Below are positions 1,188-22,619 of a DNA stretch of 24,044 nt, piece by piece. The DNA is from a virus (Duplodnaviria > Caudoviricetes): IMG/VR virus record IMGVR_UViG_3300033145_000910, positions 1 through 24,044 of that record; one strand, written 5' to 3'. The translations under genes were made by a program, and so were the position numbers. The notes below the pieces were generated by a model that was given only the letters and a program-made list of their open reading frames with translations, did not search any database and was not told the DNA's origin. Each line of letters opens with the position of its first letter. Within the stretch, counting starts at the first letter, position 1.

Positions 1188-2066
1188 TTAAATCTTGACC
1201 GCAGTCTCTTTGCGGTACTGTTCGTATAGTTGCGGATTTTCGGCCAGCACTTTTGCCAGCGCATCCATCCTGCTCAAGTTGGCATCTTTCTGCACCAGCC
1301 CGGCTGCCATGGCCTCAACCTTGGCTACAGCGGAGTCGCCAGCAGAAGTTCCACCACGGCCAATTTCAGCGTATAGTGCACCTTTCTCGATAGCCTCATT
1401 AGCCGCCTTCAACACACCTTCGAGTTTGGAGTACTCTTCCGGCGCTTTCTCAGCCAGGTTCTTCAGCACCAGGCCAAATTCTTCCGGCTTGACCGGCAGA
1501 TTGGTAAACTCGTCAGCGGCCTTCTGGATAAATTCCTTGCGAAGTTGCTTGTCGCGCTCTTCCTTGAGTACCCTCTCAAGCTCTTCGGCTTTTTTGACGG
1601 CTTCCTGCTGCTCTTTCCAGAGAGCTTCTACGGCTGGGCGGACTTCCTCAGGAATGCCGGAAAAGTCCCAACTGCCGTCCTCTTTCTTTGTCGGTGCAGG
1701 ATAACCGTACTTTTTCTTCTTGTCCTCTCCCTCGTCTTTCTTCTCCTTAGCTTTCTCGGTCGGTGCCGGATAGCCGTAGCCGGCCAATTCAGCCAAGGTC
1801 TTCATGATGTCTTTAGGCAGTTCGTCCTTATATGCGTTGAGCAGCCGTAAAGCTCCTTTTACGGCGTTCTGTGCCTTACCGGACAGCTTAGCTGCCTTCA
1901 GAACTTCTTCGACCTTCTGTTCGTCATCAAGTTCGGTTTCTAAAACAGCTTTCAGGATTTCTTCCATAGGTGAATCATCCTCCTTAAAAATTAAAAAGCG
2001 CTTTTTGTTAGCGCCCTTTGGTACTAAACTCACTTCTACAGCGTCCAAGTCTTTCAGTCTGTTCAC
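1188..2066 (-). CDS. Capsid scaffolding protein with an N-terminal XkdF/S78-like EVSLV segment
   Basis: N-terminus LKDLDAVEVSLVPKGANKKRFLIFK followed by acidic coiled coil; YGYPAPT occurs twice; located between protease and capsid. Confidence 0.7.
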   Translation of the reverse strand: MNRLKDLDAVEVSLVPKGANKKRFLIFKEDDSPMEEILKAVLETELDDEQKVEEVLKAAKLSGKAQNAVKGALRLLNAYKDELPKDIMKTLAELAGYGYPAPTEKAKEKKDEGEDKKKKYGYPAPTKKEDGSWDFSGIPEEVRPAVEALWKEQQEAVKKAEELERVLKEERDKQLRKEFIQKAADEFTNLPVKPEEFGLVLKNLAEKAPEEYSKLEGVLKAANEAIEKGALYAEIGRGGTSAGDSAVAKVEAMAAGLVQKDANLSRMDALAKVLAENPQLYEQYRKETAVKI

Positions 2067-2069
2067 ACG

Positions 2070-3374
2070 TTATGCCACCTCCTCACGAATCCCAAAGCCC
2101 CCGACACTAAAGCCGGTGTATTCACCTTTCTTGACAGCATTCCAGAGTCTGTCATCGGAGATATGCACTCCAAGTATCCAGCTTCCTTTCTTCACTTTTT
2201 GCCCGCCCCATTCAAAGTCCATCGGAGCGATGTAGCTCTCTACGACCTCGGCTTTCGCTTTTTTGCTGTGCCTGTCGCCGACAATCCTGGACTTTACCAA
2301 AAAACGGTGAGCCGCTTTTTCGATTTCATCAGCGGAAATAATATCACCCTGGCTGTCTACAGTGTCAGGCTCCAGAACCACTCCATAAACTAGCCTTTGT
2401 TCCTCATCTGCTTTGAGTATTGCGGCGTGGTACTCTTTAGTTATTTTGCCAGACTGCACGTTAATTTTTTGTGGTTTGCCTCCTTCTTTTGGGTTACGCC
2501 AAATTAACCATCTCTGTCCCTTCCGCTTCAGTTCGCTTATGACATCAGCAAGTTCGCGCTTCTCAGCATACGGCGTCTGGTCTTCCGGCTTGTCAATCAG
2601 CCAGACCCTGCGCCCACCGGCAACTGGCGCATACTCAATCAAAAATCTGCCCTTGAGTTTTTCGCCGTGCAGGAACAGCTCCAGCATATGCTCACGCCAG
2701 ACGCCGATCTCATAGGTGCCATGGTCAATGGCGAAAAACTTACTGTATTTCTCACTCGTAGCTCCTACCTCACCCGGCTCGGTTACCATCGGCTTATCAA
2801 CGCCTACATTCAGCCAGGCTTTAGGCATGGACAACTTGAACTGTCCTTGCAGGTTATCATCCTTAGGTAGAGTTATTAGCCTGTCGCCACCTGCTTTCCG
2901 GTTTTCCTCGGTCGTGCCCAGGAACACACTGAAGCCCCACAATTCGCCATCGGCTTCAAATCTGAGATCGCCATGAAGCGAGTGGTTGGTCTTTAGAAGC
3001 TCATTCTCAAGCCCGCGCCAGTGGTGGTGATACACAAAACGCCCCTTGCCATCGGGCGGATACATCTTGTGCCAGTTCTCTTTCCAGAACTTCTCCGCTA
3101 TTTCAGCCCTAGTGTCGCCTTCTTCGCCCAGGCGATCAGCTTTTTTCACTTGCTCTAAAGCCCGCTTAATCTGCTTTATCTTACGGGCCACCTCGCCACT
3201 GTCCCCAAACCGCCGTACCGCCGCCGGATGCGGCAAAACGAAATCCGCCCGGTCTCCCAGAGCGGATTTGGCAGTCTGGCCTAACGCGACTATGATCTGT
3301 GGGTTGGCCTTGTCTAATTCACCAAACAGCCAGTCGCGCCATTCTTCTATCTCCTGCTCGTTAGGCTCCCTCAC
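2070..3374 (-). CDS. C-terminal part of the polyprotein: UDG C-half, LigD-type 3'-phosphoesterase-like domain, XkdF-type prohead serine protease
   Basis: UDG: REPNEQEI..L..E....PQIIVALG...HPAAVRR. PE-like: FVYHHH...HGDLRFE...IDHGTY...LHGEKLKGRF...WLIDK. XkdF: LVYGVVLEPDTVDSQGD..SADEIEKAAHRF...VVESYIAP...KKGSW...GEYTGFSVGG. Confidence 0.8.
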   Translation of the reverse strand: MREPNEQEIEEWRDWLFGELDKANPQIIVALGQTAKSALGDRADFVLPHPAAVRRFGDSGEVARKIKQIKRALEQVKKADRLGEEGDTRAEIAEKFWKENWHKMYPPDGKGRFVYHHHWRGLENELLKTNHSLHGDLRFEADGELWGFSVFLGTTEENRKAGGDRLITLPKDDNLQGQFKLSMPKAWLNVGVDKPMVTEPGEVGATSEKYSKFFAIDHGTYEIGVWREHMLELFLHGEKLKGRFLIEYAPVAGGRRVWLIDKPEDQTPYAEKRELADVISELKRKGQRWLIWRNPKEGGKPQKINVQSGKITKEYHAAILKADEEQRLVYGVVLEPDTVDSQGDIISADEIEKAAHRFLVKSRIVGDRHSKKAKAEVVESYIAPMDFEWGGQKVKKGSWILGVHISDDRLWNAVKKGEYTGFSVGGFGIREEVA

Positions 3375-5698
3375 CCTGCCTCTATCGGGCCAAGCGGTTT
3401 AAGGTAAAGTTCCTTGAACGTCTCTCCGCTAGGACCTGTAAACGGCTCTCCTCTGGCCGCTTCAACTCTGCCGGGAGAAGCACCCACGAAAGCTAGTTTT
3501 GCGTTTTTAGGTCCCCGACTGGGAACTATGTCTTGTGTCGATTTCTGAAGCACTTGGCCGCGTTTTGCTATGTCTATAGCTTGCGCGGCAGTGTATGGAG
3601 TTTTGCGCGTTTTATCCACATCAACCACGCGGGCACCGAGCCAGGCAAGTTCTTTCTTTTCCTCATCCGGGATAAGTTCCAAAACTTCAACTGTTAGCAC
3701 ATTCCCTTTATTTGCATCGATGGATGTTGAAAATGTTTTACCTAGATTGATATACGTCTTGCCGTTAAGTTCTGCCGTGTTCTCCCAATTCATACCAACG
3801 CTTGGAAGTAGCCCGCCCCAATAGTTGTATGCACCGGCTTTCGTTTTTTGTTTATCGAGAACGATAACTTTTAACTCGATAATTCTTTTTACTTTACTCC
3901 ATTCATCTGTAGCCCCGTCCAGTTCATACTTCCCGCTAGCCGTCTTTGCCACAAGCCCTTCCGAGTGATCCTGATTGAATGCCCACCGAGCAGCAACCTT
4001 GAGTTCCTTCAAATTGTTGCACCATTTGATTTGGGTAATGGCAAAATTTTTCTTGCCTTTCAAGTACTTGTTAAAGAACTGTTCCAGTTTTTCCCTGCGT
4101 TCTTTAAATGGCTTTTCGTGCAAGTCCTCATTCCAATAAGGTATATCAAATACAGTTAAGGTTGGCACTTCGTTTTCAGCAAACTCTGGCTTTTCTCGAT
4201 TAAACTTCATCAAATCAGGCCTTGGCACTCGTTTGCCATTGCGAAACATTCCTAAATCACAATCTAGAATAAAATCATCATCTATTTTTTCAAGCACAGC
4301 TTTTATTTCAGGGAATTTATGCAATTGGTCTTTGCCAAGCTGGCCTTCAAACCAAAGTTCAACGCGAGAACCGTCTTTCTGCACTATGGAGCGGAAGCCG
4401 TTTTCCTTGGCTTCTACATCGAACGGGACTTTACCTTTGCCCCATTTCTCCCAAAGCTCATCGACTGTATATAGCTCCGTATACAGCGCCACTTGGGGCT
4501 TCGGCGGAGTAAACTTCTCGAACGGTGCAAGCCTCGCTTTAGTCACCGTTTCTGGCTTGCGGAGCACGCCCCGCACGTACACCAGATCGCCGCCTTTGAC
4601 TTCCTCCAGCTTTTCAACCTCAAATTTTGGCCTGCCCTCCAGTAGATCGTCTTGAGTCCAGAAGGCAAAACTCGACTTATTCCAGTAGCTTACATGCCCT
4701 GGATGATTGAAGGCCCCTTCTCCCTTAGTGCTCGGTACCTCGAAGACGAATTTGCCGCCGGGCTTCAGCACTCGGTGGATTTCGGCCATGATCCGCTCCT
4801 TATCGCTCAAATGCTCAAGCACATGATTAGCTCTGATTTCGTCTGCGCTGTTATCAGGATAGGGTATGCCTTGTTCTAAATCGTGTACTACATCTACCTG
4901 TGGACTGGGTTCTTTATCTAATCCCACGTATCCCTCAGGCTTAGCGTTGCCACAACCCAGATCCAACTTCAATGCTTCGCCTTTAATTATCTCCCGCTTA
5001 AACTTCTGCTTCCGCCTCAACACTAAATCAAAGATGGGCAGGTGATCCCCATGTGGTCCAGTCGGCCCGTCGATATAATGAAGTAGACCCTTCTTTTCAG
5101 GGTCAAGCACCTTCCGCACCGGCAACCACACGTTCTGCGCCTGTACTAAGAAATTGTCTCCGCTTTCGTCCCGGTCAGCACGGAATAACACATCTATGTC
5201 TTCTGGCTCCTCTTTATCGATGGCTGCAGAACCCACCACGCAGACAAAGTTGGGCACCACAACAACTTCTTCTGGAAGTTGGGCCAGTTTTGCTTCGATG
5301 CTCTGAGCCTTCTTCACATCGCGCAGCTTCTTCGTTTCCTGTGCCAGTTCGCTGTCCTCGTCATACTGAAAGCCCCGGCGGTCGAACTCTTCCATGACCC
5401 ATACGGAGGCGTTTATTATCTCTTCGGTCGGGTCCTTGCGCTTCTTGGCCGCACTATACCACTGGTGGAGTCGTCTCCACGCGTTCAGTACTTCTTCATC
5501 CGGTGCGTCCTTTAGTTTATCAGGACGCATCTCGGTTAGAGCCATCTTCTCCAAGAAGGACGGCTCTTCCGGCTCGCGCCAGCGGGCTTTGCCACCTGCC
5601 ACTGGCATGGCGGCCTGATGTATAACTTTCCAAGCCCAGTCCGGCAGTATCTCTTTAGCTTTTTCTAGAGCTATCTCAAGATACTCTTTGCTTGGCAT
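3371..5698 (-). CDS. N-terminal part of the polyprotein: helical domain, Pol-beta-like NTase, SAM methyltransferase, ATP-dependent DNA ligase, UDG N-half
   Basis: Likely start is ATG 5698 (TAATG overlap with the MuF stop, RBS GAGGA). Motifs: VVGSA...EDIDVLF (~5233); LDLGCG...HDLEQGIPY...HVLEHL...RVLKPGG (~4970-4750); KENGFR, FILDCD, VFDIPY, EGLVAK, WSKVK (ligase, ~4410-3890); GPKNAKLAFVGASPG..E...GEPFTGPSG (UDG, ~3515-3425). Confidence 0.8.
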   Translation of the reverse strand: MPSKEYLEIALEKAKEILPDWAWKVIHQAAMPVAGGKARWREPEEPSFLEKMALTEMRPDKLKDAPDEEVLNAWRRLHQWYSAAKKRKDPTEEIINASVWVMEEFDRRGFQYDEDSELAQETKKLRDVKKAQSIEAKLAQLPEEVVVVPNFVCVVGSAAIDKEEPEDIDVLFRADRDESGDNFLVQAQNVWLPVRKVLDPEKKGLLHYIDGPTGPHGDHLPIFDLVLRRKQKFKREIIKGEALKLDLGCGNAKPEGYVGLDKEPSPQVDVVHDLEQGIPYPDNSADEIRANHVLEHLSDKERIMAEIHRVLKPGGKFVFEVPSTKGEGAFNHPGHVSYWNKSSFAFWTQDDLLEGRPKFEVEKLEEVKGGDLVYVRGVLRKPETVTKARLAPFEKFTPPKPQVALYTELYTVDELWEKWGKGKVPFDVEAKENGFRSIVQKDGSRVELWFEGQLGKDQLHKFPEIKAVLEKIDDDFILDCDLGMFRNGKRVPRPDLMKFNREKPEFAENEVPTLTVFDIPYWNEDLHEKPFKERREKLEQFFNKYLKGKKNFAITQIKWCNNLKELKVAARWAFNQDHSEGLVAKTASGKYELDGATDEWSKVKRIIELKVIVLDKQKTKAGAYNYWGGLLPSVGMNWENTAELNGKTYINLGKTFSTSIDANKGNVLTVEVLELIPDEEKKELAWLGARVVDVDKTRKTPYTAAQAIDIAKRGQVLQKSTQDIVPSRGPKNAKLAFVGASPGRVEAARGEPFTGPSGETFKELYLKPLGPIEAG

Positions 5699-6582
5699 TA
5701 TAGATTCCTCACTTCCACTAATCCACACGCGCATCTACAATTAACATGAATAGGAGGATGCATTTTCGGTCCATAAGGCGTATCGAACGACGCATTAATC
5801 GACTTCCGCTGCCCATCAATCGACAAGCATTGGGGGCACCTTCTGTCGTCCGGGGTTGTGATATACTCCTTCATAAAATTAGCTGGTAGCAAACCTTTAT
5901 CTTTCGCATCTAACCAGGCCAAGTGCTGGCCAGCATTGCTTGCGGTCAATGTTTCTGTACGGGCTATGGTCTCAGCCCTGTCCCGCAACAGCCTCTCAGC
6001 ATAAGCCTCTGCCCGTTTATCGGCCTCGGCTCTACTAATCCCATCCTCAATCAACCTTCGCCTAAAGTTCTCTACTGCCCGGCTTTGGCGCTCCGTCAGC
6101 CCTATGTGCTGCCTTATCTTCTTCGCCTGCTCGTACGGGTGGCCGCCTTCCTCAAATGCCTGGCGGACTATAGCCCGTATTGCCTGGCGGCTTTCTTCCG
6201 TAACCTGCGTGATCAGCTCACCCGTGTGCTGGTTTATAAACTCAACCGCCCTGGGGTTGAGCAGGTCAAATCGAAGCTCCGCTTTCAGTTTTTCGCCCAG
6301 CCTCCGGGCGGTGGCTTTTCCCACTACTATGCCTAGCCCCGCGCCGAACACAGCCCAGTCAATCATGTTTTCTACACTAGCCAGGTCATTATTTTCCAAC
6401 GCCTCCGCCATCCTGGAAACAACAACCTCCGCTTGGGTCGCCGCTACCGCCATCAAGAAAGCCTTTTTTGTTCTGTTTAGCTTGCTATCAGCCACCCTAT
6501 GCAGCAGCTTCCATTCGGGGTCTTTCGGGTTGACAGCTTTCAAAATATACTGTTTCGGTGGCCTCGATCTGAAATACATCAT
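5698..6582 (-). CDS. Phage Mu F / SPP1 gp7-like minor head (head morphogenesis) protein
   Basis: RAETIARTE...KEYITTPDDRRCPQC...HPPIHVNCRC signature; directly after the portal. Confidence 0.9.
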   Translation of the reverse strand: MMYFRSRPPKQYILKAVNPKDPEWKLLHRVADSKLNRTKKAFLMAVAATQAEVVVSRMAEALENNDLASVENMIDWAVFGAGLGIVVGKATARRLGEKLKAELRFDLLNPRAVEFINQHTGELITQVTEESRQAIRAIVRQAFEEGGHPYEQAKKIRQHIGLTERQSRAVENFRRRLIEDGISRAEADKRAEAYAERLLRDRAETIARTETLTASNAGQHLAWLDAKDKGLLPANFMKEYITTPDDRRCPQCLSIDGQRKSINASFDTPYGPKMHPPIHVNCRCACGLVEVRNL

Positions 6583-9726: not shown

Positions 9727-10617
9727 TCAAAATTTCACAGCACGTTCTTCGATAATCTTATTTCTAATTCTTTCCCATGCTTTTTTATCTCTTAGGATAT
9801 AGTTACTAGGCAACCGCCCGTTATTTTTCTCCCGTTCTCTCTGCATCATTTTCTTAATCGCCCGTATTGCTGGCACTATTTGTTTTATATTCAATTCAAC
9901 AAACTCAGTTGGAATTCTTATAACTTCCCATCCTTCGCCTAATTCGTTTAGAACATCTTCATCAAAAGCGATATCTTTATCTTTTTTGTACTGATGTAAC
10001 CAGCCATCTATCTCTAAAACTATTTTTTCACCCTCTAAAAGAAAATCCACCTGATGCCCACCAACTTTTCTTTGGCACTCCGCTGGAATACCTACTCTTT
10101 TCAACTCCATCATGACAACCATTTCATAAGCACTATCAAATACTGAAGGATTTTCCTCTATTATTTTATTTACTTCTTCGCTAGAAACTTTGTAGTCATA
10201 TATGTTAACTGGAAATTGTTGTCTTTCTAGTATTAACAATGCTCTATCAAGCATCATCCTAGCGCGTACCCTTAAATAAGTTTGCAAATCCTCATTCCGT
10301 TGCTTTTCATATTCCTCTAAGCAAGAACTGCACCAATGTCTTTTGCTTAAGTCCTCGCATTTCTCTTCCTTTCCACAAGCCCAACACCTAGTTCGTTCTG
10401 AATTCTTTTCGTAGCTTTTATTGAAAGCTTCTGTACGTGTTTCCGTAGTTAGTTTGATCGCAAAGTCCCCATCCCACGTTTTAAATTTCTTAGCTACCTT
10501 CGCTTTTAATAATTTTCTCGCCCGTGCTGGCGTTGTAGGAGTAAGTTCTAAACCATACTTTGAAAATACCCTCACAGTATGTCTTATCTTGTAACTATAT
10601 TCCTTCCTTGCCGACAT
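9727..10617 (-). CDS. PLMP/RRXRR-domain, zinc-finger, DUF559/Vsr-like PD-(D/E)XK endonuclease fusion (AT-rich)
   Basis: VRVFSKYGLELTPTTPARARKLLKAKVAK...FAIKL resembles the IscB N-terminal PLMP/RRXRR domain; CWACG...CSSC; DSAYE...QRKVGGHQVDFLL...VLEIDGWLH...GWEVIRI is DUF559-like. Confidence 0.7.
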   Translation of the reverse strand: MSARKEYSYKIRHTVRVFSKYGLELTPTTPARARKLLKAKVAKKFKTWDGDFAIKLTTETRTEAFNKSYEKNSERTRCWACGKEEKCEDLSKRHWCSSCLEEYEKQRNEDLQTYLRVRARMMLDRALLILERQQFPVNIYDYKVSSEEVNKIIEENPSVFDSAYEMVVMMELKRVGIPAECQRKVGGHQVDFLLEGEKIVLEIDGWLHQYKKDKDIAFDEDVLNELGEGWEVIRIPTEFVELNIKQIVPAIRAIKKMMQREREKNNGRLPSNYILRDKKAWERIRNKIIEERAVKF

Positions 10618-12826: not shown

Positions 12827-13040
12827 TCGCCGCCCCGCCTTTGCGATCAACGTATCGCAGGTAGTTTCTATACAGGCGCATGAACTCTCCTATATCCCGG
12901 CGCCGCTGGTATGCCTCCGCTATCAGCAGGCACCGAAAGAAGTCGAGCACGACCTCGCACTGCCCGCGCGTCAATGCCCTTCGCATGTGCACCAAAGGTC
13001 CAGGGCGGCCGTATCTTACACGCGCTTTTTGTTCCGGCAT
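12816..13040 (-). CDS. Hypothetical protein
   Basis: 74 aa; ATG overlaps the upstream TGA (TGATG) and the 3' end overlaps the rusA start. Confidence 0.55.
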   Translation of the reverse strand: MPEQKARVRYGRPGPLVHMRRALTRGQCEVVLDFFRCLLIAEAYQRRRDIGEFMRLYRNYLRYVDRKGGAANGN

Positions 13041-13174
13041 CAGCTAGCCTTCAACTCCTTCCACCTGAAAACCCCGAACCCGCCGTTGCGCCACTGGCCC
13101 AATCCCTTCAGCCTGCCGTAATCCAGAATTGTTTTTATGATTTTTATGGTGACCTCGCTTCGCAACACTTCGAT
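13040..13174 (-). pseudogene. C-terminal remnant (44 codons) of a RAMP/Cas7-like (Vipr-like) gene
   Basis: Hand translation IEVLRSEVTIKIIKTILDYGRLKGLGQWRNGGFGVFRWKELKAS*. GLGxxRxGGFGxF is the RAMP glycine-rich loop. The strong RBS AAGGAGGG (13188-13181) is followed by ATC rather than ATG, consistent with an internal deletion. Confidence 0.7.
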
Positions 13175-13191
13175 AAACTGCCCTCCTTTGT

Positions 13192-13787
13192 TTTGCTATG
13201 CCTCGCCTTTACCTTGCTTCGCAGTACTCCGCCTTCGCTTTGCTTCGCCGCGCGCTACGCCGCCGCTCAACTCTGCTGCGCAATGCCACAGCTCAGCTTT
13301 GCTCTGCCTTCGCATAGCCAAGCTATGCTCTCGCCATACATTGCCCTGCTATGCCCCAGCTTTGCTGCGCGAAGTTTCGCCGCCCATGCTTTGCAGCGCC
13401 ACGCTGTGCCAATGCCGCGCCGTGCTTCGCCGTGCCACGCAACGTAACGCTAAGCCGTTGCTGACCAGCGCCTGCCCTGCCGTCGCAAAGCCTCGCAGCG
13501 CTACACCCTCGCCACGCATTGCCGTGCTACGCCTTCGCCACACAGCGCCCTGCCACGCCACTGCCATGCTATGCTACGCCATTGCCCAGTACCACTGCTC
13601 TACGCCGCTACGCAACGCCCTTGCTTCTGCACTGCGCTTTGCTACGCCCTGCGCCTCGCCATACTGCGCTTTTGCCTCGCAATGCCCTACTATGCATTGC
13701 CTTCACATAGCTACGCTGTGCCTTGCCCCTACCATGCCGCACAATGTCTAAGCTACCATGTATTACTCCGCCGCCGCTACATTGCCG
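13192..13787 (-). repeat. Non-coding pentameric (G/A/T)GY-NN array, candidate guide-RNA array
   Basis: Minus strand parses as, for example, GGC-gt AGC-ac GGC-aa TGC-gt GGC-gag | GGT-gt AGC-gc TGC-ga GGC-tt TGC-gac. Roughly 100 units, and no credible protein in any frame. Confidence 0.8.
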
Positions 13788-13983
13788 AAATGTCCAAGTA
13801 ATTCCCGCACCTGGGGCACGCCAGCGTGTCTGTCGGCCCGGTCGCCTTGTACCCGCACCTGCCGCACACCAGCCGGACGCCGTCCGGCACAAAAGGTTGG
13901 CTTTCGCGGTCTTTCTTCACCGCATACCATGCTAGCAACGCGATTATAGCTACGGCGATTGCGGTGATTATCGTCTTAAACAT
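13777..13983 (-). CDS. Small membrane-anchored zinc-ribbon protein (68 aa)
   Basis: Own RBS GGAGGTG and ATG 13983; N-terminal hydrophobic helix, CGRC...CPRC. It is joined to DUF5131 in the ORF track only because of an upstream frameshift. Confidence 0.7.
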   Translation of the reverse strand: MFKTIITAIAVAIIALLAWYAVKKDRESQPFVPDGVRLVCGRCGYKATGPTDTLACPRCGNYLDISAM

Positions 13984-14952
13984 CAATCCACCTCCCCCGC
14001 GCAATCTGCCACGATGCAGGCATTCGGCATCTCGTTCCACTCTCGCCCGTCCAGCAGGCGACCGGCTTTCTTCCGACCAACACGATGCATTGGACAATAA
14101 CCTTCTAAGGGATCGTAAAACACATACGTAAGCATACTCATCATCTGGGAGCACTAGCTCTGGATTGTATTCCCATTGTTCTCGGGGAAACCACTGCCCC
14201 CAATTTTTGAAGAAAAACGGCACGCCTGACTCCTGGCACTGATCACGAAGGCTCCGAATCCAATCCGGGTGACATGGCCTAGCGCCGGGACCTGTTTCGC
14301 CGCCACAGATGATCCAATCTATCCTTTGCAACGGTTCCAACTCCTTATCAAATCCGTCCCTTAGCCAATGTTCACCGGTAAGTGCATTTACATAACGCGC
14401 TTCATCAATCGTTATTTGGGTTAAATTCACAGCAGACAACATAGGCTCCACCGAAACGAACCTCACCGCCGCCGGTATTTGAAGCAGTATCGGGATGCGC
14501 TCATCGGCGGTCTGCTGGTTTTCTGCAGTTACGCCGATCCATACGTTGTCAGGCCATATCTCGTCAATCGGCCATGCTTTCGCCATTGCTGCAGCATCTG
14601 TCCATGCTAGCATTCGCTCTGGCCTTTTTGTGAGCACCAAGAATAAGTGCTGGCTGGCGTTCCTCATGACCATCCATACTTCGTTTATAAACTTGCCCGG
14701 CACATCCGGGTGAAAAAGGTCTGACATGCTACAAACGAACACCCGCCGTGGCTTTCGCCACCGCAACGGCTCCTCCAGCCGTTCCGGGTGCAACGTCACC
14801 CGAAACGGATCGTCTTTCGGATAGCCATGCCGCCCGGCTAACCTCTTGGCAAACTGTTTGGCATAGCAGTTCTCGCACCCTTCACTTACAGGCGTGCAAC
14901 CCGTAACAGGATTCCAAGTATAATCCGTCCACTCAATTTTGGATTTACCCAT
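13983..14952 (-). pseudogene. DUF5131 (phage Gp37/Gp68, radical-SAM-like) gene, frameshifted near 14130
   Basis: SKIEWTDYTWNPVTGCTPVSEGCENCYA, FVCSMSDLFH, LTKRPER, IICGGETGPGARP. The usual tail MHRVGRKKAGRLLDGREWNEMP...* lies in another frame, ending at TGA 13985-13983. Confidence 0.8.
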
Positions 14953-21341: not shown

Positions 21342-22046
21342 TTAATCGCCGGCTTTTTTCTCTCCAGTGATAATCTCTAGCAATTGTACGCGTGAGGCGC
21401 GGATTTTTCCGCCTGTGTTAAGCGGAACGCATACGCCTGCCAGCCACTCCCACCAAATGAGGCACTTCCAGATTGGGAGGTTGTCTGCATTGTTCTTCAA
21501 AACCCAATCTAGCGTACCTACATTGATGCCGCAGGCACATTCTAGCGTAACGTCATAATTAACTACTTCCTTTATGACTGCGCCAGGTTCGATCTTCCAG
21601 GATGGATTAGGACTATAGGCGCTGCCAAATGTTTTGTACACTACCACTCCTTCTGGGGCAGACTCAAAATTATTAAGAATGTAGTCAACAGGGTCAACCA
21701 ACCCCTGCACACCAGAGAGGTCTGCTTCCCGCAGGTTTGCTCCCCGGAGGTTTGCTCCCCGGAGGTCTGCTCTCCGCAGAACTGCCCCCTGGAGGTCTGC
21801 TCTCTCCAGGTCTGCTCTCCGCAGGTTTGCTTTCCACAACTTTGCTCCCCGCAGGTCTGCTCCTTTCAGGTTTGCTCCCCGCAGGTCTGCTCCTTCCAGG
21901 TTTGCTCCCCGCAGGTCTGCTCCTTCCAGGTTTGCTCCCCGCAGGTCTGCTCCCCGAAGATCTGCTCCTCGGAGATCTGCCCGTTCGCCTCCTACTTCGT
22001 CGCTAAGCCACTTCGCGTGTTTTTCTAGAATGGCGGCTATGTCCAT
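21342..22046 (-). CDS. Pentapeptide-repeat protein
   Basis: LEKHAKWL...GERADLRGADLRGA..., about 18 A(D/N)Lxx repeats, then a globular C-terminal domain (ECACGIN). Confidence 0.92.
   Translation of the reverse strand: MDIAAILEKHAKWLSDEVGGERADLRGADLRGADLRGANLEGADLRGANLEGADLRGANLKGADLRGAKLWKANLRRADLERADLQGAVLRRADLRGANLRGANLREADLSGVQGLVDPVDYILNNFESAPEGVVVYKTFGSAYSPNPSWKIEPGAVIKEVVNYDVTLECACGINVGTLDWVLKNNADNLPIWKCLIWWEWLAGVCVPLNTGGKIRASRVQLLEIITGEKKAGD
21717..21982 (-). repeat. 15/30-bp coding tandem repeats of the pentapeptide domain
   Basis: Repeated AGGTTTGCTCCCCGCAGGTCTGCTCC units, in frame. Confidence 0.85.
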
Positions 22047-22071: not shown

Positions 22072-22254
22072 TTAGTACGCTACCGTCTTCAATAGGTACA
22101 GCCACGGCAACGCCGCTAGAAGCACTCCCGCCAGCAGCATCAGAACCACCAGCGGCACGCATTTGTACCAGCGCCATACCAGCCGGCGTCTGGGCAGCAC
22201 GTCCTCGTGGCGGGCGGCGAGTTTATAGCCGTTGGCTTCTGTCGCCCACTTCAT
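22072..22254 (-). CDS. Small membrane protein
   Basis: 60 aa with a C-terminal hydrophobic helix; RBS AAGGAGGTG. Confidence 0.6.
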   Translation of the reverse strand: MKWATEANGYKLAARHEDVLPRRRLVWRWYKCVPLVVLMLLAGVLLAALPWLYLLKTVAY

Positions 22255-22619
22255 TTTTTCGCACCTCCTTTCCTCTCCACCTCGACCATCTTTTTGCCTT
22301 CGTAGCCGTCCACTATGTCCCGCCCGCCTTCTAATATAAGCCGGACGTAGCCGACGTAAGGCCGCCGTAGTACTTCGACGACCTTTTTCCCGTTTATGCG
22401 GTCGTCAATGCGGACCTGTTCGATTTTGACGGTTTCTTTTTTTCTGCACTTCTCTACTTCAACCACCTTTTCTCCTTCGTAGCCGTCTATGACATCCCGT
22501 CCGCCTTCCAGGATCAGCCGGACGTAGCCGACGTAAGGCCGCCGTAGTACTTCGACGACCTTTTTCCCGTTTATGCGGTCGTCAATGCGGACCTGTTCGA
22601 TTTTGACGGTTTCTTTCAT
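22251..22619 (-). CDS. Hypothetical protein made of a tandem 59-aa duplication
   Basis: KETVKIEQVRIDDRINGKKVVEVLRRPYVGYVRLILEGGRD occurs twice, period 177 bp. Confidence 0.7.
   Translation of the reverse strand: MKETVKIEQVRIDDRINGKKVVEVLRRPYVGYVRLILEGGRDVIDGYEGEKVVEVEKCRKKETVKIEQVRIDDRINGKKVVEVLRRPYVGYVRLILEGGRDIVDGYEGKKMVEVERKGGAKK

Follow-up and report, generated by a model that had tools for sequence, protein, structure and literature searches.

A phage head-operon gene encoding enzyme cassettes joined to a C-terminal XkdF protease, with predicted lysine cut signals at the cassette seams

Results

A head-operon gene broken by a deletion

The window analyzed here is the whole contig (24,044 nt) of virus record IMGVR_UViG_3300033145_000910. 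It reads as a temperate-looking tailed phage segment whose minus strand carries terminase, portal, MuF, ORF1/ORF2, scaffold, cement and major capsid genes, and the source labels on its close relatives are Clostridia and Bacillota. ORF1 and ORF2, the two open reading frames (ORFs) between the MuF and scaffold genes (Table 1), are near certainly one gene, broken in this copy, which in most relatives encodes a single chain of unrelated enzyme modules ending in an XkdF prohead protease; the linkers between the modules carry a predicted lysine cut signal. The original prediction, made from the letters of the window, had placed the pair between MuF and scaffold; Pfam and PHROG matches of the neighbours agree, and relatives keep the gene at this fixed head-operon position, with MuF or portal on one side and scaffold-cement-capsid genes on the other in most loci of sufficient length.

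The pair had been described as two abutting ORFs. Their coordinates were right, but the boundary is a frameshifting 52-nt deletion within the uracil-DNA glycosylase (UDG) module, at about 3388. The gap is exactly 52 nt, at 3388, against relatives L002 and L003, and the deletion takes out the UDG strand bearing the conserved Asn as well as shifting the frame, so that the ORF2 GTG overlaps the ORF1 stop as GTGA. The relative locus L001, whose DNA is 81% identical to the window, has one ORF. A programmed frameshift joining ORF1 to ORF2 was ruled out, since the window lacks 52 nt, among them those for the conserved Asn strand, that all nine loci aligned at the junction possess (9/9). Translation of ORF1 probably starts at the ATG at 5698 (3371..5698, 775 aa), which has a GAGG-type ribosome site. 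Because of the deletion, the window copy cannot produce the predicted chain of about 1,200 aa, and its UDG is without the central strand; the half carrying the phosphoesterase (PE) and the protease can be made only through re-initiation at the ORF2 GTG, and the ORF1 product is no longer joined covalently to it.

In relative L003 (10190-10480) an independent 11-nt duplication breaks the UDG and leaves a similar second ORF (UDG-PE-XkdF), and in L004 and L024 the gene is broken at other places. The window has a second deletion, of 24 nt and in-frame, at about 3010 (-), in the PE insertion loop between the first two metal histidines (compared with L001, L006, L016 and others). Elsewhere in the window, the DUF5131 gene (13777-14952, -) has an apparent frameshift near 14.1 kb, the typical DUF5131 C-terminal stretch lying in another frame and the listed ORF continuing into a small downstream gene. 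The PE deletion and the apparent DUF5131 frameshift fit decay and assembly error alike, and the 52-nt deletion may itself be either. The 52-nt deletion junction was looked for in two sequence collections with no match, as was the intact allele in a gapped pattern search.

Table 1. Features of the cassette-chain gene and its neighbours in the window, in order of transcription
Feature	Coordinates	Strand	Remarks
MuF head morphogenesis gene, upstream neighbour	5698..6582	-	Pfam PF04233 3e-15
ORF1, 5' part of polyprotein gene	3371..5734	-	787 aa from first ATG
N-terminal helical module 1	5561..5698	-	no family match; model; in 53/78 complete chains
Helical hairpin module 2	5339..5539	-	weak T4 endonuclease V-like signal
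Predicted cut signal VKKA, helical 2/NTase	5303..5317	-	
Minimal Pol-beta-superfamily nucleotidyltransferase (NTase)	5006..5281	-	GS 5228-5233, DxD 5192-5200
Predicted cut signal IIKG, NTase/methyltransferase	4976..4990	-	
Class I S-adenosylmethionine (SAM) methyltransferase, Methyltransf_11 type	4556..4969	-	Pfam 1e-12
Predicted cut signal VTKA, methyltransferase/ligase	4532..4546	-	
ATP-dependent ligase adenylation domain	3860..4525	-	KxNGxR motif I at 4391-4408; Asp, not Glu, in motif III
Probable ligase OB domain	3545..3859	-	LigD ligase model spans residues 438-706; swapped together with ligase
Predicted cut signal LQKS, OB/UDG	3536..3550	-	
UDG N-terminal half	3389..3526	-	GASPG 3470-3484; Pfam UDG profile 1-40
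52-nt deletion junction; new TGA overlaps ORF2 GTG	3371..3389	-	
ORF2, 3' part of polyprotein gene	2070..3374	-	434 aa, GTG start
UDG C-terminal half	3159..3374	-	HP motif 3225-3230; Pfam UDG profile 61-125
Predicted cut signal VKKA, UDG/PE	3135..3149	-	
LigD-type PE fold with insertions	2463..3119	-	profile and fold matches
Predicted cut signals ITKE and ILKA, PE/protease	2406..2444	-	
XkdF prohead protease, His/Ser half	2085..2405	-	His in 2265-2276, Ser in 2097-2114
Scaffold gene, containing five hydrophobic-x-K-A sites	1188..2066	-	
First 34 scaffold-gene residues, EVSLV peptide predicted to complete protease	1965..2066	-	

Modules of the chain

The methyltransferase, ligase and XkdF calls of the original prediction were borne out by Pfam (1e-12, 2e-20 and 3e-34). 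The ligase scored 73.8 bits (cut-off 26.2) and its best PDB matches were DNA ligases; XkdF (PF14550) scored 118 bits against a cut-off of 24 and had BFVD fold matches too, and a search with its profile for a solved structure gave no match. The methyltransferase relatives offered no substrate clue among the 120 matches listed of 450. The OB region called along with the ligase had no profile match of its own, and its support, from the LigD model given in Table 1, is indirect. The structural model made the PE call firm: with a pLDDT of 89.9, its seven Foldseek PDB matches at E<=0.001 were all LigD PE structures (7/7), and a profile built from 48 relatives matched five PDB sequences only, each a LigD-type PE. 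A LigD_N Pfam match in ORF2 (4e-4) was below cut-off.

The call of a Pol-beta-type NTase held as to superfamily, but the module, of about 100 residues, is no gap-filling family X DNA polymerase (Pol X). NTP_transf_2 and Polbeta were its best families, the former matched by the NTase of 11/37 relatives (best 2.7e-6), and language-model neighbours agreed. The hG[GS]...DxD motif kept its G and both D in 100/100 relatives and its S in 98/100; at the strand expected to bear the third acidic residue 82/100 have His, and 84/100 have a later Asp. The NTase model was partly folded and its fold search gave no match among the matches listed; the NTase and OB profiles found nothing significant in the PDB. 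For the family-4-like UDG, the UDG profile matched in two pieces and the best matches were family 4/UdgX (for intact L001, TIGR03914 at 1e-22 and TIGR00758 at 2e-16, both below cut-off), but the consensus of motif A among relatives is GASP, and they lack the cysteine set (0 Cys in 38/58, never 4). Their Glu/Asp is kept in 63/63, the central Asn in 51/63 and the motif B His in 60/63. The KENGFR of the window ligase and the GASPG of its UDG, previously taken as deviations that might alter activity, are family traits and not private mutations of the window. Helical module 2 matched the Pyr_excise profile in 6/46 members (best 3.7e-5), but for a T4 endonuclease V fold there was no PDB profile match and no such structure among the structural matches listed.

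Relatives and cassette exchange

Relatives were taken from 69 matches among 7,994 scored candidates; P0002-P0063 were kept (self and six weak partial matches dropped) and five locus ORFs were added, giving 67. The survey of homolog architectures that the original prediction had proposed found the fusion, with a single chain running to XkdF in 50/67. A GTDB scan yielded 2 loci only, one from Bacillota and one from a Dehalococcoidales metagenome-assembled genome, and the PE profile at E<=1e-30 gave 212 representatives at 50% identity, a large family. In 78 complete chains, which were found via ORF1 or family patterns so that module counts are biased by the queries, PE was present in 77, NTase in 73, ligase in 71, UDG in 52 and methyltransferase in 47. 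Anchoring on PE instead (108 chains of >=600 aa) gave NTase in 80, ligase in 75, XkdF in 69, UDG in 30 and methyltransferase in 17; anti-CBASS, 2H, Dam-type and metallo-beta-lactamase (MBL) modules occur in other relatives. The repair pathway read into the window is accordingly not an obligate set.

Sequence comparison indicates that close relatives exchange modules: between P0005 and L001 most modules were 77-91% identical, the ligase 42% and the OB 49%. Dam-type methylases, MBL folds and several unnamed modules occur as inserted cassettes. Of 133 further representatives, 32 long chains were selected for their length; since the families listed for some of them were the best five, the counts are lower bounds. 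They had MBL (at least 10), Dam-type (at least 6), Acb1, an anti-CBASS protein (at least 3), 2H (at least 3), HNH (at least 1) and GNAT (at least 1) cassettes.

Unnamed cassettes of 80-250 aa lie between seam motifs in P0008-P0011, P0030, P0056, P0004, P0043, P0049, P0050, P0061 and L007 (928-1050 aa); by eye they look Cys-rich, zinc-finger-like or ASCH-like, and they are candidates for new anti-defence proteins. Inserted segments of P0060, P0061, P0059 and P0034 have short His-rich leaders (HLPG..HDQ..HG) or an FNPYHD..GRF leader after seam lysines, possibly packaging or ejection tags. An intein-like (Hint) start, also noted by eye, interrupts the PE of P0062 at residues 388-442. The cement ORF is extended by 100-500 aa in L007, L008, L009, L010 and L014, and the portal ORF likewise in L009 and L066, which suggests further cargo fusions in the same operon.

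A lysine motif marks the seams

The linkers between modules carry a hydrophobic residue, any residue, Lys and a small residue, written as [VILM]xK[ASGQEDT]. In the first set this motif exceeded the maximum of 500 shuffles at 8/10 junction types, the exceptions being ligase/OB and helical 1/2. Because the motif had been picked from that set, it was retested on loci fetched later. It was found at 116/139 seams (shuffle mean 45.7, max 62) of a held-out set of 40 dereplicated loci, fetched after the motif was fixed, and at 194/293 seams (shuffle mean 86.9, max 107) of the 133 further representatives; linkers >45 residues are excluded from these counts. At the ligase/OB joint it stayed at chance (11/63 in the first set, 4/26 held-out, 13/78 in the further representatives). 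Its density was 0.15-1.1 per 100 aa inside catalytic modules versus 3.2 at seams, and it flanks inserted cassettes. The helical 1/2 seam has instead a K followed by L/M/I/V/A-type residues. There (window 5540-5554, -) an EK[LMIV]A-type motif was near-invariant in 26/26 held-out chains, and many chains begin exactly at this point, so that the seam may be cleaved with another residue at P1'.

A short P3-P1 code is usual among prohead proteases, since the HK97 capsid protein is cleaved at K103/S104 (PMC10275583) and the SPN3US protease cleaves after AxE (PMC10052503). Processing of the chain, which the original prediction had proposed, thus has sequence evidence in the seam motif, and cutting after lysine in the prohead is likely. 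It is very improbable that the chain stays unprocessed as one tethered machine, the lysine motifs being linker or recombination remnants. Cleavage is so far a prediction and lysine-rich linkers do match by chance, as the shuffle mean for the held-out set illustrates, but the enrichment lies far above shuffles in two held-out sets, is absent at the ligase/OB joint, and extends to insertions, which are motif-flanked.

The same sites might serve disposal. The activity of the enzymes would then be confined to the producing cell, where they would treat DNA during packaging (nick sealing, uracil removal, methylation) and afterwards be degraded like scaffold, as might be expected for a late-operon gene next to a scaffold with five similar sites. 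We consider this improbable: the rarity of the motif inside catalytic modules is what release of whole domains predicts, and anti-CBASS and Dam-type cargo would be most useful at entry.

The protease appears to be split between the chain and the scaffold gene

The scaffold gene opens with the EVSLV peptide, which ends in another hydrophobic-x-Lys. This peptide stood at the scaffold-gene start in 55/71 loci with the protease (44/66 scaffold ORFs by a stricter pattern), and in three distinct relatives (L018, L081 and L074/L075) a single ORF covers both it and the protease. PHROG 3017 matches both pieces, protease and scaffold start, and in relative P0216 XkdF continues into the C-terminal part of Peptidase_S78. 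The residues that we take to be catalytic, after S78 proteases, were kept in XkdF relatives (His 92/93, Ser 93/93). A model of the protease-peptide complex scored 0.70 versus 0.10 for the best of 3 controls; the pass mark was reached by 116/157 solved complexes and 2/215 mismatches. Its runs share at least 68% of contacts, the partner pLDDT is at least 55, and the invariant catalytic Ser110 contacts peptide residues 12-13. As the two are halves of one split domain, the model may have reached the mark through resemblance to proteases of known structure. Together these data support the view that the last protease strands are encoded at the start of the scaffold gene, complementation being predicted from the model. 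Scaffold binding would then both recruit the chain and complete the protease. Read-through from protease into scaffold is not required; the frames agree in close relatives and not in L009 or L010.

Active-site residues

The ligases kept the motif I Lys in 99/99, the motif IV Glu in 99/99 and the motif V Lys in 97/99. The residues at motifs I/III (n = 99) were N/D in 57, D/E in 27, N/N in 12, K/D in 2 and N/A in 1; the window ligase has Asn at motif I and Asp at motif III, and just the 27 are canonical. A class I methyltransferase accompanies 63/70 Asn/Lys-type ligases and 0/27 canonical ones (3 spurious matches of 18-23% identity removed, 2 truncated chains left out). In a quick tree a single branch (support 94) sets the Asn-type ligases apart, so that the methyltransferase-ligase link amounts to one event. 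In the PE, the metal triad His/His/Asp with its Arg (LigD His42/His48/Asp50/Arg52) was kept in 98-99/99.

The methyltransferase partnership of the Asn-type ligases would suit an RNA repair system like Pnkp-Hen1, in which RNA 3' ends would be healed by the PE, joined by the Asn-type ligase and marked at the junction by the methyltransferase. We hold this to be highly improbable. The partnership is a single event by the tree, the ligase matches DNA ligases and not RNA ligases, no Hen1 structure appeared among the methyltransferase matches listed, and UDG and Dam-type cargo point to DNA.

A weightier alternative accepts the same loading and cutting and sees in the cassettes unrelated counter-defence effectors, not a repair set. 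The NTase would modify protein or tRNA, the PE would hydrolyse a nucleotide signal or other adduct, the UDG fold would only bind DNA, and the Asn-type ligase would not be a nick sealer. Patchy module content speaks for it, as do the Acb1, 2H, GNAT, HNH, MBL and Dam-type cassettes of relatives and the remodelled ligase and PE sites, and minimal NTases of polyvalent proteins have been proposed to modify proteins (Iyer 2017, PMC5512222). Yet even ANMV-1, a virus of archaea, has NTase, ligase-OB and PE together in this order, LigD likewise pairs a ligase with a PE, and canonical D/E motifs persist among the ligases. On balance we judge this effector alternative rather unlikely.

Discussion

The reading that we prefer is that one head gene encodes a cassette chain ending in XkdF, and that this chain is self-processed virion cargo with a DNA end-heal-and-seal core; we regard its prospects as evenly poised. 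The intact chain would probably load into the prohead when its protease half binds the opening strands of the scaffold protein, and would probably be cut after lysine at the cassette seams inside the capsid. The freed enzymes would be ejected with the genome into the next host. There they would clean up and reseal DNA ends or nicks and weaken the host's defences. Ejection with a role in DNA end repair has about an equal chance of being right or wrong. We infer cleavage, virion retention and ejection, and likewise that ligase-OB and PE act on DNA, the last because the ligase matches DNA ligases, the PE fold is that of LigD, and UDG and Dam-type modules are among the cargo. The link to defence is drawn from Acb1 and 2H among the 32 long relatives.

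Several points weigh against this reading. The motif was chosen after the first data had been viewed, and the relatives are kin, hence non-independent; the helical 1/2 seam is without it (2/40 in the first set, 0/26 held-out), and NTase/ligase seams are weak in distant chains (14/32, shuffle max 15). A search of 50,697 GenBank phage records gave no match covering 80% of the chain and no cultured carrier, and among the 108 PE-anchored chains the ligase is missing from 33 and XkdF from 39. The NTase model is without a fold match. By a positional alignment, the position that apparently corresponds to LigD His84 is Gln in 81/99 (Met in the window) and that for Tyr88 is Trp in 99/99, both beside an invariant Lys. 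The LigD PE needs His84 and Tyr88 (PMC8656161, PMC3082917). The motif I Asp is replaced by Asn in 70/99 ligases; in several ligases this Asp is dispensable for adenylation and essential for later ligation steps (PMC1807946), so that sealing by the Asn-type ligase of the window is uncertain.

A more far-reaching version is possible, and we advance it tentatively. Through the split protease, scaffold binding would load the cargo and switch on lysine cutting only in the prohead; a pre-packaged, Ku-free repair kit, with its new Asn-type ligase and remodelled PE, would re-seal the incoming genome after restriction or CRISPR cuts; and swappable anti-defence cassettes would complete the cargo, in bacterial and archaeal viruses alike.

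Cutting after hydrophobic-x-Lys at seams by a protease completed by scaffold would give a rule for the loading and release of enzyme cargo in small tailed phages, and the seams let unnamed cassettes be read as candidate anti-defence proteins, Acb1 having already been found there. A virion-borne ligase and end-healing enzyme, if true, would counter DNA-cutting immunity before phage gene expression. The Asn-type ligase and the Lys/Gln/Trp PE are natural variants at positions thought essential. The window copy is damaged, and intact relatives such as L001 will serve better for tests.

Four other window loci were noted: a DUF559/Vsr-like nuclease with an RRXRR region fused at its N-terminus (9727-10617, -), beside a small terminase-like helix-turn-helix gene; a 122-aa protein of two near-identical ~60-aa repeats (22251-22619, -); a pentapeptide-repeat protein (21342-22046, -); and long low-complexity plus-strand ORFs with no family match (12911-13751).

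Comparison with known systems

Like bacterial LigD and archaeal non-homologous end-joining enzymes (PDB 3N9B, 3P43, 3P4H, 5DMP), the chain combines an ATP-dependent ligase with the PE fold. Unlike LigD, it has a minimal NTase in place of the AEP polymerase, its PE has large insertions, and it shares a chain with a head protease and is probably cleaved into pieces; AEP polymerase and Ku families were absent from the 24 window ORFs scanned. Pol X enzymes such as Pol beta consist of a palm with fingers and thumb, about 300 aa or more, and thus differ from the short NTase module of the phage. Family 4 UDGs have the motif A GE(A/G)PG and four Fe-S cysteines; they and UdgX are the best matches of the phage UDG, which differs in its GASP motif A, has no 4Fe-4S cysteine set and is broken in the window. 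The family thus pairs ligase with PE as LigD does, yet by the features lacking it falls outside LigD, Pol X and family 4 UDG.

Proteases 41-44% identical to the XkdF of the relative used as query occur in the Lactococcus ul36-group and in Rhizobium RHph_Y1_11 ('DNA methyltransferase/prohead protease'). Those XkdF/S78 proteases carry a single fused cargo, whereas the chains described here have four to eight cassettes; and unlike them and the HK97 protease, the present family has its last protease strands on the scaffold gene in most loci, as far as the peptide and model evidence goes. The ANMV-1 protein AJP62006.1, annotated as an ATP-dependent DNA ligase, shows the same NTase-ligase-OB-PE order and is encoded immediately downstream of a portal-type gene; it is without XkdF, UDG and methyltransferase, and its ligase motifs are canonical. 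At that locus (L022:3200-5800, KP703175.1) the 'DNA ligase' has an apparent second, degenerate PE, and the upstream 'MutT-like hydrolase' matches the HI1409 portal-type family.

XkdF and effectors fused to head peptidases are mentioned in passages of PMC7824862 and PMC9503650, and the part of the HFTV1 preprint drawn on deals with nested protease-scaffold genes, not cargo. A description of the cargo-chain architecture was not found in the literature searched (titles and passages, outside subscription journals and the Iyer 2017 FTP supplements). In its main text, Iyer 2017 has no 'glycosylase', its ligase passage concerns RNA ligases and 2H domains, and the NTase-DNA ligase-PE-XkdF order, the lysine seam code and the scaffold complementation were not found there, although its figures and FTP supplements may hold the architecture (PMC5512222). 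The same paper describes polyvalent proteins with assemblin-like peptidases at their C-termini, for which packaging and processing were proposed. The present chain resembles them in joining unrelated enzyme domains, in its late-operon position among virion genes and in its C-terminal peptidase, with the fusion intact in most relatives and split in the window copy. The cargo chain is, then, a variant of the known polyvalent proteins.

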